A model generated the notes under the pieces. It did not search any database. It worked only from the letters and a program-made list of their open reading frames with translations, and was not told where the DNA came from. DNA of 41,798 nucleotides from a virus. Lineage: Duplodnaviria; Heunggongvirae; Uroviricota; Caudoviricetes. A program made the position numbers and the translations under genes. Of the stretch, positions 16,063 through 21,068 are shown in pieces; within the stretch, counting starts at the first letter, position 1, and each line of letters opens with the position of its first letter. The stretch covers positions 1 to 41,798 of the IMG/VR virus record IMGVR_UViG_2563366805_000010; one strand, written 5' to 3'.

Positions 16063-16137
16063 GGGTCAGAAGCACAGAGGTTGTGAGATCGGCTGTTAAC
16101 CGATTGGTCGAAGGTTCGAATCCTTCCTGTCCCGCCA
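16063..16137 (+). tRNA. tRNA-Asn (anticodon GTT)-like gene
   Basis: Hand-folded cloverleaf: acceptor GGGTCAG/CTGTCCC (one T-T mismatch), D-stem 3 of 4 pairs with GG in loop, anticodon stem ATCGG/CCGAT with loop CTGTTAA, 5-nt variable loop, T-arm GAAGG-TTCGAAT-CCTTC, discriminator G and encoded CCA. Confidence 0.5.
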
Positions 16138-16319: not shown

Positions 16320-16643
16320 ATGAAAATGCCATACAAACAAGATTTCATCGCTGCGCTACTTGCCGCCAAGGAGCAGGGTATTGGTGCAATGCTGGCTTTT
16401 ATCATGGCGTATCTGCGTGGTCGCTATAACGGCGGCGCGGTAACAAAAACGCTAATTGATGCGCTGATGTGCGCGATGATTGCCTGGTTCGTTCGTGACC
16501 TTCTGGACTTTATCGGCCTGAGCAGCAACCTCGCCTACATAGCCAGCGTCTTTATTGGATACATCGGCACCGATTCGATCGGCAATCTGATTAAAAAACT
16601 TGCAGCAAAAAAGGCGGGAGTTGACGATGCAAACCAGTCCTGA
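16320..16643 (+). CDS. S: Class I holin (lambda S-like)
   Basis: Near-collinear with lambda S (MKMP...AKEQGIG...[10 protein letters not shown]...SNLAYI...[13 protein letters not shown]); MKM dual-start motif; GGAGGTGAGG SD. Confidence 0.9.
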
Positions 16644-17076
16644 CGGAATTGCTCTGATAAAAAAATTTGAAGGTTGTCGGCTGACTGCTTACCCCGACCC
16701 CGGAACGGGAGATGCGCCGTGGACCATCGGCTATGGCTGGACCCATCCGGTTGACGGAAAGCCAGTAAAGCGCGGTATGACTATCGACCAGCAAACCGCT
16801 GACAGGCTTCTGAAAACAGGGCTTGTTGGTTATGAGAATGACGTGCTGAAAGTTGTCAGGGTGAAGCTGACACAAGGCCAGTTCGATGCCCTGGTGTCGT
16901 TCACGTATAACCTCGGTGCGCGGTCATTGTCGACATCGACTCTCCTGCGAAAACTCAACGCCGGAGATTACGCTGGTGCAGCCGATGAGTTCCTGCGCTG
17001 GAATAAAGCTGGTGGGAAGGTGCTGAATGGGCTGACACGTCGGCGGGAGGCAGAGCGAGCTCTGTTCCTGTCATGA
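16627..17076 (+). CDS. Endolysin (GH24 lysozyme, P22 gp19-like)
   Basis: [18 protein letters not shown]...TIGYG and C-terminal [12 protein letters not shown] resemble P22 lysozyme; overlaps holin 3' end. Confidence 0.85.
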
Positions 17077-17540
17077 TTAGCGCACTGGTTAAGCGTTACT
17101 GGCTGCAGTTGCTGGTGCTGGCGTTAATCGGCGCACTGGCTTTCTTCGTGAACCACTACCGCGACAACGCCATCACTTACAGAGACCAGCGCGATAAGGC
17201 CACTGAGAAACTCCTCCTGGCGACCGCCACCATTAAAGACATGCAGACCCGCCAGCGTGATGTCGCTGCACTGGATGCCAAATACACCGGAGAACTGGCT
17301 GATGCGAAAGAAACCATTGAGCGTCTGCATAGCGATGTCATTGCTGGCCGTAAGCGGCTGCAAGTCGCCGCCACCTGTGCAAAGTCAACGACCGGAGCCA
17401 GCAGCATGGGCGATGGAGAAAGCCCAAGACTTACAGCAGATGCTGAACTCAATTATTACCGTCTCCGAAGTGGAATCGACAGGATAACCGCGCAGGTTAA
17501 CTACCTGCAGGAATACATCAGGACGCAATGCCTGAAATAA
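17073..17540 (+). CDS. Rz: Rz i-spanin
   Basis: N-terminal TM helix then [10 protein letters not shown]...[13 protein letters not shown] as in lambda Rz. Confidence 0.8.
17302..17487 (+). CDS. Rz1: Rz1 o-spanin lipoprotein, embedded in Rz in +1 frame
   Basis: [20 protein letters not shown] lipobox followed by Pro-rich segment; entirely inside Rz. Confidence 0.7.
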
Positions 17541-17572
17541 TTTTTTTGCAAATCACAAAGTCAATTTAATGA

Positions 17573-17595
17573 GCCTCGCGATGCGGGGCTTTTTT
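17573..17595 (+). terminator. Rho-independent terminator after lysis cassette
   Basis: GCCTCGC-GAT-GCGGGGC hairpin (one G-T pair) followed by six T. Confidence 0.55.
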
Positions 17596-17738
17596 ATGTC
17601 CGCAGTAAACGCGCATCTCACGCGCATATTAACGAGAGCCTTTCAGTAAGCGAGCCTGAGAAATGCCGTTATAGGTGGCGACCTCTCTCGGGCGGCTTTT
17701 CTGTGAGACAGGCTCACTTTCTAAAAGGTAAAGACGCT

Positions 17739-18257
17739 ATGAATAATCCGTCAGTTATTCCGGCCTTCGACTTCCGCGAAATGGTCACGACCCTCGACAA
17801 CAAGATAATCACCACATCACTCAAGGTGGCGGATTACTTTGGCAAGCGACACAAAGACGTTTTGCGTGCCATACGTAACCTGAAATGCTCCGATGACTTC
17901 ACCCAGCGCAATTTTGCGCCCATTGATTTCATTGATAAAAATGGCGATGTTCAGCCTATGTATAACATCACCCGCGACGGATGCATGATGCTAGTGATGG
18001 GATTCACTGGCAAAACAGCTGCCGCAGTGAAGGAGTGTTACATCAATGCCTTCAACTGGATGGCCGAGCAGCTAAACCGGCGCATGGCGATGGGTGAAGA
18101 ATTGCAGCATCGCTACGCCATCAAAGAAACGCGCTCAAAGCTGAAAGGCACGATCGGAAGCCGTTTGATGAACGAGCGGAAGAAAGAGAAGCGCGTCCTG
18201 GAGCTCGAACATGAGCACATCATGCAGGTAACGCAGCCGGAATTACTTATTGGCTGA
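17739..18257 (+). CDS. rha: Rha-family phage regulatory protein
   Basis: ITTSLKVADYFGKRHKDVLRAIRNL is the conserved Rha core; AAAGG SD. Confidence 0.7.
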   Translation: MNNPSVIPAFDFREMVTTLDNKIITTSLKVADYFGKRHKDVLRAIRNLKCSDDFTQRNFAPIDFIDKNGDVQPMYNITRDGCMMLVMGFTGKTAAAVKECYINAFNWMAEQLNRRMAMGEELQHRYAIKETRSKLKGTIGSRLMNERKKEKRVLELEHEHIMQVTQPELLIG

Positions 18258-18317
18258 TCGCGGCATTACAGAAGCCCTTCATTGAGGGGCTTCGATAATG
18301 GAGCACTGGAATTATTC

Positions 18318-18938
18318 ATGAACAGACCACACCCACCAGCGCATTTTACGATGCCACCTGACCCGAAGCCGTACATCAGCATTATGCCCGCTAATGACGT
18401 TGGCGAGTGGCTGAATCAGCACATCCTGAGCGATGAGGGTGACCTCTACAACCATGACCACCAGCATTTGCTTGAAGCGGATCTGTGCTTTCTCTGGGCG
18501 TCTAACGCTTTCGAGAAGAAAGGGCGTTCCGTGCTGGGGCAGGCGGAAGAAGTGGCAATGCGGGCTGGAGGCTGGCAGAAAGCGCGGATGGAGCAGCAGA
18601 TGTATGAATGGTTCGGCAGGGTGCCGCAGTTCATCATCACGCTGGCCGCTGATTACTGCTCGCAATGTTCCGATCTGGAATTCTGTGCGCTGATAGAGCA
18701 CGAGCTTTATCACATCTGCCAGGCGACAGATGAATTTGGCGCGCCGAAGTTCACGCAGGAAGGGCAGCCAAAGCTGAAGCTGCGCGGCCATGACGTGGAA
18801 GAGTTTGTGGGCGTGGTTCGCCGTTACGGTGCAAGCCGGGACGTGCAGGAAATGATTGATGCGGCGAATCAGCCAGCGGAGGTTGCTCATCTCGATATTG
18901 CCAGAGCGTGCGGGACGTGCATGCTGCGACTGGCTTAA
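18318..18938 (+). CDS. Hypothetical HExxH-motif protein (putative zinc metallopeptidase)
   Basis: IEHELYHICQ followed by acidic residues; Cys cluster CSQCSDLEFC and C-terminal CGTC; start uncertain (track begins at TTG 18282). Confidence 0.5.
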   Translation: MNRPHPPAHFTMPPDPKPYISIMPANDVGEWLNQHILSDEGDLYNHDHQHLLEADLCFLWASNAFEKKGRSVLGQAEEVAMRAGGWQKARMEQQMYEWFGRVPQFIITLAADYCSQCSDLEFCALIEHELYHICQATDEFGAPKFTQEGQPKLKLRGHDVEEFVGVVRRYGASRDVQEMIDAANQPAEVAHLDIARACGTCMLRLA

Positions 18939-18969
18939 ATACTGGACTGTATAAGACGAATGGTGATTT

Positions 18970-19443
18970 ATGGCTGCATTAAAACCTGATGTGAAAGCCT
19001 TCATCATTCAGTCGCTTGCGTGCTATGACACGCCATCGCAGGTGGTCGAGGCTGTCCAAAAAGAATTCGGGATCAAGATTACCCGCCAGCAGGCTGAATC
19101 TCACGACCCCACGAAGGCCAGCGGTAAGACGCTCGCCAAAAAGTGGATCGAGATGTTCCACGCGACGCGCGAACGGTTCCTGACCGAAACCAGCGACATT
19201 CCGATAGCGAACAAATCCTATCGCCTCCGCGTGCTTGACCGCATGGCAACCAAAACCGAGGGGATGAAAAACTTCTCCCTGACGGCGCAGCTTATCGAAC
19301 AGGCCGCGAAAGAGGTTGGCGACGCTTACACCAATAAGCTGAAGGTTGAGAGCACTGGCAAGGATGGCGGCCCGATCAAGACCGAGACGACCAACCTCAC
19401 CGCAGATCAGGCCGCAGAGATTTACCGCAAGATGATGGGGTGA
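18970..19443 (+). CDS. Putative terminase small subunit
   Basis: 157-aa gene directly upstream of and overlapping the large terminase; basic, HTH-like N-terminus; assignment by position. Confidence 0.45.
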
Positions 19444-19445
19444 TC

Positions 19446-21068
19446 ATGCCTCTCCCGTTTGAATTCGATTTCAGAAACCCTGATTACCAGATGGTTTTTG
19501 AATGGCGGATGGAGCGCTTACAGCGCATTCGCCAGAACCCTGAAATGCTGCCAGCGCTAAAGCAGTTTTATCGCACCAACCCGGCACAGTTCATCATCGA
19601 CTGGGGTATGACTACTGACCCGCGTAACATCGATTATGGCCTGCCGGTCACCATCCCTTTTCTGCTGTTCCCGAAACAGGAAGAGTGGATTCACTGGATC
19701 ATGGAGCGGCGCGAACGACTGGAGAACGGCATCACCGAAAAGAGCCGCGAAATGGGGCTCAGTTGGACCGCGATCGGGCTGGCCTGCTCGCTTTGTCTCT
19801 TCAACAAAGAAATGGTTATCGGTTTCGGCTCCCGTAAAGAGGAATACGTCGACAGCACCGGTGACCCGAAGGCGCTGTTCTGGAAGGCGCGAAAGTTCGT
19901 GGAAACACTGCCCATCGAGTTTCGTGGTTCGTGGGACGAGAAGAAGCATGCGCCGTATATGCGCGTTGAGTTTCCAGATACTGGCGCGGTTATCAAAGGC
20001 GAGGCTGGCGACAATATCGGACGTGGTGACCGTACCACGCTCTACCTGGTGGATGAAGCTGCATTCCTCCAGCGTCCTCTGTTGATTGATGCGGCGCTGT
20101 CGCAAACCACCCGTTGCCGTATTGACCTGAGCTCGGTTAATGGCATGGCGAACCCGTTCGCGCAGAAGCGTCACGGCGGGAAGATACCGGTATTCACATT
20201 CCACTGGCGGGATGATCCTCGCAAGGATGAAGAGTGGTATCGCAGGGAGTGCGAGAAAATCGACAATCCGGTGGTGGTGGCGCAGGAACTTGACCTGAAC
20301 TACAGCGCATCTGCGGAAGGCGTCCTGATCCCGTCCGACTGGGTACAGGCTGCCGTCGACGCGCATATCAAACTTGGTATTCAGCCAACGGGCAAGCGAC
20401 TGGGCGCGATGGACGTCGCCGACGAAGGCCGGGACAAAAACGCCTTTTCGACCCGTCACGGCTTCCTCCTGGAGAACGTGCGGGAATGGTCCGGCGTGGG
20501 CAGCGACATTTACCAGTCCGTTGAGAAGGTCTTCGGCTTTTGCGAACAGGACAACCTCGAAGAATTTCGCTTCGACGAGGACGGCCTGGGCGCTGGCGTT
20601 CGCGGCGATGCACGCGCCATCAACGAACTGCGTAACGCTGCGCGCCGACCGTCAATACTCGCCACACCGTTTCGCGGTAGCGGCGCGGTGTTTGATCCGG
20701 ACGACGAAGCGGTGCGCGGCGACAACGGACAGGCCGCCCGCCTGAACAAGGACTTCTTTGCTAACGCCAAGGCCCAGAGCTGGTGGCAATTACGCAAGCT
20801 TTTCCAGAACACCTGGCGCGCCGTGGTTGAGGGAATGGCCTACAACCCGGACGAAATTATCTCAATCAGCAGCGCCATGGCGAGCAAAGACAAACTCATC
20901 ATCGAGCTGTCGCAACCGACCTATTCCATTAACGGTGTGGGGAAAATCGTTGTTGATAAACAGCCTGACGGCACCAAGTCGCCGAACCTCGCCGACTCGG
21001 TGATGATCAGCTACGCGCCAATGAATTCAGCCCTGAACATCTGGGAGCTGCTAGGGAGACAGGCCTGA
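19446..21068 (+). CDS. Terminase large subunit
   Basis: 540 aa; ATPase then nuclease halves; acidic segment LYLVDEAAF resembles a Walker B; followed by portal. Confidence 0.8.

Follow-up and report, generated by a model that had tools for sequence, protein, structure and literature searches.

A structured RNA leader ahead of rha and a putative PF18894 metallopeptidase ahead of the terminase genes: two candidate modules in a lambdoid late operon

Gene content between lysis and packaging

What do a Rha-family gene and an adjacent gene for an HExxH protein do between the lysis and packaging genes of a lambdoid phage, and do they act together? The window analysed here, the whole stretch of 41,798 nucleotides, corresponds at 100% identity to the lambdoid Citrobacter phage Omnitron. 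Its initial annotation treated the two genes as one unit behind the lysis terminator. The location was correctly described, as holin, lysozyme, Rz and Rz1 genes lie upstream and the genes for DUF2280 and the large terminase subunit (TerL) downstream, and the terminator is present after Rz. The grouping of the genes is another matter. The interval is better explained, with a probability of about 0.72 for the explanation as a whole, as two independent modules of a mosaic late operon, namely a leader-cargo cassette that includes rha and a packaging-linked gene for a zincin-like protein (Table 1).

Table 1. Features of the region, in positions of the window
Feature	Position	Strand	Basis or remark
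Intrinsic terminator after Rz	17571..17598	+	hairpin GAGCCTCGC/GCGGGGCTT (17571-17591) and T-run
Direct repeat ACGCGCAT-N3-ACGCGCAT, leader hairpin P0	17609..17627	+	GCGC 17611-17614 pairs with GCGC 17622-17625
Structured RNA leader, ~125 nt	17609..17733	+	covariance model, covariation
Pseudoknot-type complementarity in leader	17633-17638 with 17685-17690	+	at least 6 complementary variants
Leader helix P1	17639-17650/17717-17728	+	AAAGG Shine-Dalgarno within 3' strand
Leader helix P2	17652-17658/17709-17715	+	
Leader helix P3	17659-17663/17698-17702	+	
Leader helix P4	17665-17668/17693-17696	+	
Leader helix P5	17673-17676/17681-17684	+	
rha, 172 aa, cassette cargo	17739..18257	+	PF09669, TIGR02681, phrog_518; start at ATG 17739
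Hairpin without U-run between rha and metallopeptidase gene	18264..18300	+	precedes the metallopeptidase gene whatever its upstream neighbour (window's lineage)
PF18894 zincin-like metallopeptidase, 206 aa	18318..18938	+	PF18894 profile match
H48/H50	18459-18467	+	
HELYH, residues 128-132	18699-18713	+	
H158/D159	18789-18794	+	
C198xxC201	18909-18920	+	
DUF2280 protein, small terminase subunit	18970..19443	+	PF10045, E=5e-50
Large terminase subunit (TerL)	19440..21068	+	phrog_2, E=4e-32; no Pfam match

The assignment of the first gene to the Rha family was borne out by matches to PF09669 (E=6e-31, 107.3 bits, cut-off 29.9) and TIGR02681 (103.3 bits, cut-off 45.95). By sequence, this Rha is a copy of the PF09669 prototype from phage phi80 (protein 100% identical, DNA 98.5%), and as a member of a known family it is a routine finding. 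The phi80 gene has the same leader and terminator upstream; its downstream neighbour differs, since in phi80 the identical rha is followed by other genes with no metallopeptidase among them. A passage of PMC4936722, citing Mozola and Friedman (1985), states that the rha products of phi80 and P22 (orf201) harm lytic growth in IHF-defective hosts. The interval first assigned to the locus, starting at 17596, does contain the gene, but it also takes in the leader. In the ORF listing, as in the annotation of phi80, rha begins at GTG 17703; the conserved leader stops just short of ATG 17739, and the corresponding ATG is where unrelated cargo genes begin. The start was therefore placed at ATG 17739, which suggests that the annotated GTG start is wrong.

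The two genes are adjacent and co-oriented, and there is precedent for pairs of an HExxH protease and a DNA-binding regulator, as in IrrE/DdrO (PMC6868357). Rha and the HExxH protein could thus be a pair like ImmR/ImmA or DdrO/IrrE, in which the protease would cleave a repressor or Rha itself and switch the state of the phage. However, Rha lies upstream of the metallopeptidase gene in just 9 of 83 related loci, a DUF2280 gene lies directly downstream in all 83, and the identical rha of phi80 does without the metallopeptidase. Identity to phi80 is 98.5% through the rha segment as far as window position 18300, and the sequences diverge beyond it, so that a mosaic joint at about 18300 separates the genes; both belong to the late operon, outside the immunity region; and the HExxH protein matches PF18894, with no Peptidase_M78/ImmA family reported. 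A regulator/protease pair is thus largely refuted by synteny, and we regard it as highly improbable. Membership of the ImmA/IrrE (M78) antirepressor proteases was rejected as well, on the lack of an M78 match and the rarity of Rha as a neighbour. A Pfam scan of the antisense ORF at 18312-19007 returned no family.

The structured leader and its cargo

The Rz terminator bounds the leader-cargo cassette on its 5' side, and 25 of 27 leader copies have a terminator hairpin with U-run 0-16 nt 5' of them. Behind it stands the direct repeat that had been reported upstream of rha, with copies at 17609-17616 and 17620-17627 spaced 11 bp start to start. Its 8-mer alone is not enriched in the window (5 copies, 3.1 expected), and the pairing of the repeat as hairpin P0 gains significance only because the pattern 'GCGC(A) N5-8 GCGC(A)', and likewise the P0 stem, is found in every one of the 24 distinct homologous leaders. 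Three of them (L034, L051 and L071) show a lengthened or compensated pairing; elsewhere the stem is nearly invariant, so that a direct repeat and a hairpin are indistinguishable in most copies. The suggestion that the repeat is an operator for Rha or CI did not survive, because the same leader and repeat precede KilA-N, T5orf172/GIY-YIG, HNH and other unrelated genes in phages whose immunity regions differ.

Downstream of P0, the leader is predicted to fold into a long irregular hairpin (helices P1 to P5). With its covariance model the + strand obtains 138.7 bits and the - strand 23, and the orientation is strongly strand-specific, always on the strand of the late operon. In the model-fitted alignment, from which all covariation counts were taken, 90.1% of paired cells are complementary compared with 35-45% when partners are slid, and 25 of 34 pairs have changed on both sides, a number matched in 0 of 500 shuffles. 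Leaders that came from the model search, not from manual alignment, are 54-63% identical and preserve 30-32 of 33-34 pairs. In 26 copies the distance from the leader to the cargo ATG is 0-7 nt. Compensatory structure, strand specificity and a fixed distance to the start codon are the properties expected of a cis-regulatory mRNA leader, and sequence comparison points to all three here. The comparative data also show that the Shine-Dalgarno sequence would be paired within the leader hairpin.

A further helix of pseudoknot type may form in the leader. Counted by column it is 67% paired against up to 57% with slid partners, a count blurred by register shifts, and its support was therefore taken from the register-free count of complementary variants given in Table 1. 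This helix is incompatible with the full stem and disfavoured in nested folding (-36.1 vs -47.9 kcal/mol), and folding of successive prefixes did not reveal it as a co-transcriptional intermediate. Two other interpretations of the leader were rejected: an intrinsic terminator made of P3/P4 and a U-tract, as the 'U-tract' covaries as a helix strand, and a leader peptide from GTG 17703, of which neither frame nor codon is conserved. In the Rfam scan of the window only a tRNA passed the gathering threshold, and at E<=10 the leader obtained only spurious matches (19-22 bits, cut-offs 70-86). A literature search for a previously described leader or sRNA gave nothing relevant. Both this leader RNA and the metallopeptidase-terminase linkage discussed below appear undescribed in the searched literature and databases.

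The first module (17571-18257) would accordingly be organised as a promoter-less accessory cassette comprising terminator, GCGC hairpin, leader and cargo gene. A scan for sigma-70 promoters yielded no more matches than chance would, and rha had none upstream; the cassette is probably transcribed only when Q-antiterminated late RNA polymerase reads through the terminator. By pairing the Shine-Dalgarno sequence, the leader hairpin would hold down translation of a potentially toxic DNA-binding protein of Rha, KilA-N or T5orf172 type, which may be freed once the hairpin is opened, cleaved or refolded.

The conserved element could instead act as DNA, either as a recombination 'linker' for cargo swaps or as an operator for a protein that binds the GCGCA repeat. 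Exchange of the cargo exactly at the ATG fits such a role, as does the near-invariant P0, which leaves repeat and hairpin undistinguished in most copies, and a WATCAA-like core was spotted by eye between P0 and the next helix. However, conservation at the DNA level is insufficient to account for the double-sided compensation in 25 of 34 pairs and for the 30-32 pairs kept by leaders of 54-63% identity, nor does it fit the strong strand specificity, always on the late-operon strand. We therefore consider a DNA element quite unlikely and favour a leader that acts as RNA. Such a leader resembles phage mRNA leaders that sequester the Shine-Dalgarno sequence, for example the lambda N-leader with its RNase III site or the P1 c4/ant control region, in having a long irregular hairpin that pairs the ribosome-binding site upstream of a regulatory or toxic gene and a conserved internal asymmetric loop. 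There is no sequence or Rfam relation to these systems, and the present leader differs in being portable, in its position behind a terminator, in serving many cargo genes and in its additional covarying helix of pseudoknot type.

At least six cargo families follow the leader, including Rha, KilA-N, T5orf172/GIY-YIG and HNH, one being swapped for another precisely at the start codon. The leader is carried by 155 phage records and by 641 of 5426 complete E. coli genomes (12%), and it is also found in many Shiga-toxin phages. Its significance would lie in this distribution, that of an unannotated structured RNA ahead of interchangeable, potentially toxic DNA-binding genes; as proteins, Rha and the HExxH protein are unremarkable representatives of known families.

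The HExxH protein as a putative zincin

The second gene had been described as encoding a HELYH protein of about 207 residues, close to the 206 found. Searches with sequence profiles and structures, which had been proposed as a check, gave a PF18894 match, a predicted zincin-like fold and structural matches to proteases. The match to PF18894 ("putative phage metallopeptidase") covers profile positions 2-134 of 134 (E=3.6e-43, 147.3 bits, gathering 23.7), and that to PHROG 513 is full-length (E=8.6e-97). On this profile evidence the protein is a member of PF18894, a family without a characterised member, and it shares the HExxH...HD...CxxC pattern of PF18894 and PHROG 513. The initial annotation would have been contradicted by membership of a well-known family whose HExxH has no catalytic role; the family encountered was the uncharacterised PF18894. 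The family has thousands of members.

Conservation was assessed in 131 representatives of at most 50% pairwise identity. H128 and E129 are present in 100%, H132 in 99%, H48 in 97% and H50 in 95%, and the candidates for a third zinc ligand are H158 (99%), D159 (93%) and E161 (96%). The several cysteine clusters noted earlier hold in part: there are seven cysteines, among them CSQC (114-117) and CGTC (198-201), but only the C-terminal CxxC is a feature of the family, as conserved cysteines are limited to C198 (98%), C201 (88%) and C123 (76%) and CSQC occurs in about 20%. The AlphaFold2 (AF2) model built from a diverse alignment (pLDDT 90.3, pTM 0.80), which superseded one from a shallow alignment (pLDDT 74.7, with a poor C-terminus), displays the elements of a minimal zincin fold, with a mixed beta-sheet, a backing helix and an active-site helix; helix 119-131 carries the HExxH at its C-terminal end. 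The protein is thus probably a cytoplasmic zinc metallohydrolase of PF18894, in which, judging from conservation, His128, His132 and His158 (or Asp159) would bind the catalytic zinc and Glu129 would act as general base. Another metal site, of structural function, may be made up of His48, His50, Cys198 and Cys201.

A zincin fold need not imply a peptidase, and the protein might be a nuclease similar to YbeY or an accessory of the terminase that binds DNA in a zinc-dependent manner, for example to help in pac recognition or cleavage. Its position beside the terminase genes fits, neighbouring genes often encode HNH or Vsr endonucleases, and the conserved HxH and CxxC could form a DNA-binding zinc module. 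However, the invariant Glu of HExxH (100%) is a peptidase signature that the YbeY motif, HxxxHxxxxxH, does not contain, and the best structural matches of the model are proteases. We judge a non-peptidase unlikely and retain the putative peptidase.

Comparisons with described metalloproteases pointed to resemblance in fold only. The minigluzincins (projannalysin, proabylysin and selecase) and M48 proteases (BepA and HtpX) share 10-15% identity with no relation at sequence level; the third ligand of gluzincins is Glu, in place of the probable His158/Asp159 here, and the present protein is extended at both termini by elements that carry HxH and CxxC. The DNA-dependent metalloproteases SprT, Spartan and Wss1 and the protease domain of ArdC likewise resemble it in fold, with no sequence homology detected. 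Membership of SprT-like/WLM families was rejected, with Pfam reporting PF18894 alone, no PDB sequence match and BFVD SprT-like matches at E>0.3, as was the transposase label of PHROG 513, with no transposase match in Pfam or NCBIfam and a zincin fold instead. Neither the protein nor a profile of 140 sequences found a match among PDB sequences, BFVD gave only one family member besides the weak SprT-like matches, the metallopeptidase and DUF2280 had no match in NCBIfam or PADLOC, and a Pfam scan of the N-terminal extensions of longer family members found no extra domain.

Linkage of the metallopeptidase to DUF2280 and packaging

The constant neighbour of the metallopeptidase gene is DUF2280, in 83 of 83 related loci and at a distance of 30-33 bp in 83 of 84; this coupling is not part of the description of PF18894 as found. 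The large terminase is far more variable: the TerL of the window recurs in 8 of 83 loci, and five BLASTP-unrelated TerL groups occur among the loci. DUF2280 itself is conserved over residues 1-135, while its last ~20 residues switch with the TerL, giving five types of C-terminal tail that match the five TerL groups. This tail, together with the position before TerL, whose start overlaps the DUF2280 stop codon (19440-19443), identifies the DUF2280 protein as a probable small terminase subunit. Position and switching tail recall P22 gp3 and Sf6 gp1, which bind DNA through an N-terminal domain and TerL through a C-terminal tail; DUF2280 has no solved structure and no sequence link to them, and a PDB search with it gave chance matches only. 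Some GenBank records label the DUF2280 protein as terminase small subunit.

In the phage database, counts by genus are equal for the two genes (Acinetobacter 62/62, Pseudomonas 44/44, Vibrio 8/8 and Burkholderia 7/7), and the same gene order is seen in ZF40, JBD44, an Acinetobacter phage and Sphingomonas and Sinorhizobium prophages, so that the linkage spans gamma- and alpha-proteobacterial phages. There are exceptions on either side. DUF2280 occurs without the metallopeptidase in 181 Salinibacter phages, and DUF2280 is missing beside a distant member of PF18894 in Bordetella phage PHB04 and beside one in a Brevundimonas prophage. The divergences of the two proteins correlate weakly (Spearman 0.27), which gives no sign of tight co-evolution. 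Synonymous-site diversity in both genes revealed no dip at an embedded cis site (pac), a weakly informative result.

The second module (from 18318) would then begin with the metallopeptidase as the conserved first gene of DUF2280-type packaging modules, co-expressed with DUF2280. A late-expressed protease might act with the initiation of packaging, conceivably by clearing or processing DNA-bound proteins in a manner similar to Spartan/SprT, or by processing the small terminase; we put forward each of these roles with low confidence. Literature searches on PF18894, DUF2280, metallopeptidases with terminases and phage anti-defence metalloproteases found nothing functional, and the packaging role and substrate are therefore drawn from synteny alone. 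To our knowledge, no terminase system has a dedicated zincin or protease gene as constant upstream partner.

The metallopeptidase could also be an accessory protein unrelated to packaging, such as an anti-defence or host-takeover protease, in a slot tolerant of insertions ahead of the small-terminase gene, with its DUF2280 linkage reflecting shared ancestry of the block and not function. The gap between lysis and packaging genes is known as a hotspot for accessory genes, and Rha and KilA-N cassettes are found there; the weak divergence correlation, the Salinibacter phages and PHB04 agree with such an origin. However, the true accessory genes of this region are variable, whereas the metallopeptidase is constant in every related locus, at its fixed gap, across five TerL types and phages of two proteobacterial classes. 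The lack of a PADLOC match also speaks against it, weakly, since PADLOC covers defence and not anti-defence proteins. We regard an accessory role as possible, though not the probable one, and prefer the link to packaging. For the orphan family PF18894, a lead lies in its almost invariable association with a single family of small terminases, whichever of the unrelated large terminases is present.

A more ambitious joint proposal, which we hold to be doubtful, is that the PF18894 zincin is an obligatory third component of DUF2280-type packaging, perhaps a DNA-associated protease stripping or processing proteins at the packaging start site or one maturing the small terminase, and that terminator, hairpin and leader together form a portable riboregulator of a new kind, switched through a pseudoknot or a change of conformation, that gates Rha, KilA-N, T5orf172 and HNH cargo in lambdoid, P22-like and Shiga-toxin phages. 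If true, the zincin would represent a new class of terminase accessory factor.

A smaller element also accompanies the metallopeptidase gene. The hairpin that separates it from rha is present in the related loci L005-L009 despite their different upstream genes, and in L005 it carries a compensatory change, from GCCC/GGGC to GCCA/TGGC.

Gene order around rha and the metallopeptidase gene

Window positions 17500-19000 are 100% identical to Citrobacter phage Omnitron (CP115737), a lambdoid phage without annotation, and both genes of interest are of already known kinds. The first belongs, as initially proposed, to the Rha family (PF09669, 6e-31; also TIGR02681), and its product is a copy of the prototype phi80 Rha (100% identity); the second encodes an HExxH protein of Pfam family PF18894. 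The initial annotation had placed them in one unit, which comparisons of gene order did not bear out. Among 83 loci, 80 of them from viral contigs in which a related HExxH protein is encoded and the other three from annotated phages (Pectobacterium ZF40, Pseudomonas JBD44, and one Acinetobacter phage), Rha lies upstream in just nine, whereas a gene of the small-terminase family DUF2280 lies directly 3' in all 83. Similarity to phi80 spans Rz through rha and ends at position 18300, and the phi80 rha is followed by genes unrelated to those of the window. The rha cassette and the metallopeptidase-DUF2280 block are two separable modules, and a role for the HExxH protein as an ImmA-like partner of Rha, its neighbor here and in those nine loci, has very little probability. 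No earlier description was found either of the coupling between zincin and small terminase or of a portable terminator-hairpin-leader cassette; the interest of the region rests on these two, both directly testable.

Features of the late region (window positions)
Feature	Position	Strand	Family or remark
tRNA-Asn (GTT)	16063-16137	+	
S-type holin	16320-16643	+	
Lysozyme	16600-17076	+	
Rz	17073-17540	+	
Rz1	17302-17487	+	embedded in Rz
Intrinsic terminator	17571-17591 (+ T-run)	+	after Rz
Non-coding stretch, 150 nt	between Rz terminator and rha	+	
rha	after non-coding stretch, before HExxH gene	+	PF09669, TIGR02681
HExxH gene (metallopeptidase), 206 aa	18318-18938	+	PF18894
DUF2280 gene	18970-19443	+	
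Large terminase (TerL)	19440-21068	+	phrog_2

TerL is recognized by PHROG 2 alone, with no Pfam match at E<0.01, and a 231-aa antisense ORF across the HExxH gene gave no family match. The tRNA gene, directly upstream of the holin and within the late region, is flanked by two terminator-like hairpins. Another hairpin, lacking a U-run, is found 5' of the metallopeptidase gene (18264-18300); relatives with other upstream genes retain it and show a compensatory change. The Shine-Dalgarno sequence of this gene, GGAG, is poorly spaced, 14 nt upstream of the start codon.

The metallopeptidase and its coupling to the small terminase

The HELYH motif, reported in an ORF of ~207 aa, occupies residues 128-132 of a 206-aa protein that is a full-length member of PF18894, ‘putative phage metallopeptidase’ (3.6e-43), and that also falls in PHROG 513, labeled ‘transposase’. 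The family is large, forming more than 3,400 clusters when grouped at 90% identity and having 903 representatives at the 50% level; no paper on its function was found in the literature. Among 131 mutually distant representatives, conservation extends over the active-site motif (H128 100%, E129 100%, H132 99%), the residues downstream of it (H158 99%, D159 93%, E161 96%), and H48 (97%) and H50 (95%). As for the several Cys clusters first described, seven cysteines are present and C198 (98%), C201 (88%), and C123 (76%) are conserved, but the CSQC cluster and the remaining cysteines are not. No solved structure related by sequence was found, even in a profile search. The C-terminus was poorly resolved in a first AlphaFold model based on close relatives; a second, based on a diverse alignment of 140 sequences, reached a pLDDT of 90.3 and a pTM of 0.80. 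Motif conservation, family membership, and modeled fold together uphold the zincin-like reading, and the modeling establishes the product as a predicted zincin-fold protein of PF18894. Judging by conservation, H158 or D159, where the next helix begins, probably provides the third metal ligand, and a second metal site might be made up of H48/H50 and C198/C201. That the protein is instead a non-peptidase zinc enzyme or a DNA-binding helper appears improbable.

At the N-terminus, an RPxPP motif (residues 3-7; window 18324-18338) is 85-89% conserved in the family, and the model is highly confident there (pLDDT about 90). Among the structural matches of the protein, the best are zymogens whose cleft is blocked by their own tail, and by analogy its N-terminus might be an autoinhibitory plug.

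The position of the metallopeptidase gene before the DUF2280 small terminase is constant, with a gap of 30-33 bp in 83 of 84 loci when the window is counted as the 84th. The TerLs that follow form five groups without mutual BLASTP similarity, and the type found in the window occurs in only eight of the 83 loci. In DUF2280, residues 1-135 are conserved and the last ~20 are hypervariable, every TerL group pairing with its own tail type, as would be anticipated for a small terminase whose tail binds TerL. Wherever the phage database lists both genes their coordinates adjoin, and their counts per genus are equal (Acinetobacter 62/62, Pseudomonas 44/44, Vibrio 8/8, Burkholderia 7/7); in alphaproteobacterial prophages of Sphingomonas and Sinorhizobium, too, the metallopeptidase gene is followed in order by those for DUF2280, TerL, and portal. 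Exceptions were a Brevundimonas prophage with another small ORF in place of DUF2280, a member in Bordetella phage PHB04 (32% identical) located elsewhere, and 181 Salinibacter phages in which a membrane protein, not the metallopeptidase, precedes DUF2280. The rule is therefore one-way: in Proteobacteria the zincin goes with DUF2280, and DUF2280 sometimes occurs without it.

Given this constant linkage, the most economical idea is that the zincin, which would be a late, cytoplasmic zinc protease, acts at the initiation of packaging, where it could act on DNA-bound proteins in the manner of Spartan/SprT proteases, removing or processing them, or alternatively process the small terminase. A packaging-related role is held tentatively, with a probability of about 0.35. 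An accessory protease unrelated to packaging, for example in anti-defense, is considered only slightly less likely. The divergences of the two genes are weakly correlated (0.27), and synonymous-site diversity revealed no conserved cis site embedded in either gene.

In the 181 Salinibacter phages, the gene preceding DUF2280 (L085 2932-3450 in phage 4_20) encodes a 172-aa multi-pass membrane protein. In one Sphingomonas prophage (L089 7514-9460), the portal downstream of the block has Pfam hits to Phage_portal_3 and Acb1 (precomputed PF23474, anti-CBASS phosphodiesterase), and may be a portal-Acb1 fusion.

The leader RNA of rha and other cargo genes

The direct repeat noticed upstream of rha is present (ACGCGCAT at 17609-17616 and 17620-17627), although its five copies in the window do not amount to enrichment (3.1 expected), so the pair alone carries no statistical weight. 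As GCGC is self-complementary, the repeat reads as a predicted GC hairpin, P0, followed by a long irregular hairpin (P1 to P5). The Rz terminator-to-rha stretch is 99-100% identical in HK106 and phi80, and at the exact equivalent of ATG 17739 a T5orf172/GIY-YIG-type gene begins in HK106 and a KilA-N gene in Salmonella phage S107. BLASTN located the leader in 155 phage records, including 77 Shiga-toxin phages as well as HK620, CUS-3, Sf101, g341c, and SPN3UB. Of 5,426 complete E. coli genomes, 641 also carry it. None of these records or genomes annotates it as RNA, and no Rfam family matched it.

Compensatory changes were obvious among the leaders, and a covariance model built from 12 copies found 27 in the sequences compared, all on the late-operon strand, including one in the window (138.7 bits on the + strand vs 23 on the - strand), two in phi80, and two in locus L071. 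In the model-fitted alignment of 24 distinct sequences, 90.1% of cells were paired, vs 35-45% with slid partners, and 25 of 34 pairs changed on both sides, values reached by none of 500 shuffles. The more divergent leaders recovered by the model search, 54-63% identical to that of the window, nevertheless retained 30-32 of 33-34 pairs and showed 7-11 compensatory ones. An intrinsic terminator lies 0-16 nt upstream in 25 of 27 copies, and in each of 26 copies examined the cargo ATG falls 0-7 nt beyond the point where the model ends, the cargo families being Rha, KilA-N (with ORF11CD3 or P63C), T5orf172/MUG113, HNH, a small membrane protein, and an N15 gp59-like protein. The only Shine-Dalgarno-like sequence sits in the 3' strand of P1; in the predicted, covarying RNA structure, which lies behind a terminator, the ribosome-binding site of the exchangeable cargo genes is paired.

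No promoter was detectable for the rha cassette, which would be expressed only by Q-modified polymerase reading through the terminator, and the leader would hold down translation of Rha-type proteins until the hairpin is opened, cut, or refolded. Such tight control fits a passage of PMC4936722, citing Mozola & Friedman 1985, in which phi80 Rha, the identical protein, is detrimental to lytic growth without IHF. At the annotated GTG start of rha, leaders carry GTG, ATG, or ACG, with indels and no conserved frame, and unrelated cargo genes begin at the equivalent of ATG 17739; the 12 annotated N-terminal residues are therefore probably not translated. The GTG start in the phi80 GenBank record (window 17703-17738 region) falls within the conserved structured leader, and RefSeq E. 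coli Rha annotations appear to reach the same start.

Segments 17633-17638 and 17685-17690 provide a sixth complementarity, found in at least six sequence variants. It is pseudoknotted and lies directly against P1, with no linker between them, and is therefore incompatible with the full stem; nested folding disfavors it by about 12 kcal/mol. It may represent an alternative conformer or belong to a bent tertiary fold. At the P2/P3 junction (17659-17662), UGAG on one strand is almost invariant while the flanking helices covary; opposite it (17703-17708) lies a 6-nt bulge, GUGAGA, or GYGCGA in other copies, and the motif may serve protein or RNase recognition or form a kink.

Four related loci (L023, L026, L039, L069) carry a terminator and a P0-like hairpin (GCGC N7 GCGCA) about 60 nt upstream of the metallopeptidase gene, without the P1-P5 part, so P0 seems tied to the terminator and not to the long hairpin. 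Leader-cargo cassettes also occur in tandem: phi80 (L004 4704-4812) has a second, diverged leader before PHI80_66 (N15 gp59-like), and L071 has two full cassettes (1757-1879 and 2621-2749), HNH then KilA-N/P63C, each with its own terminator.
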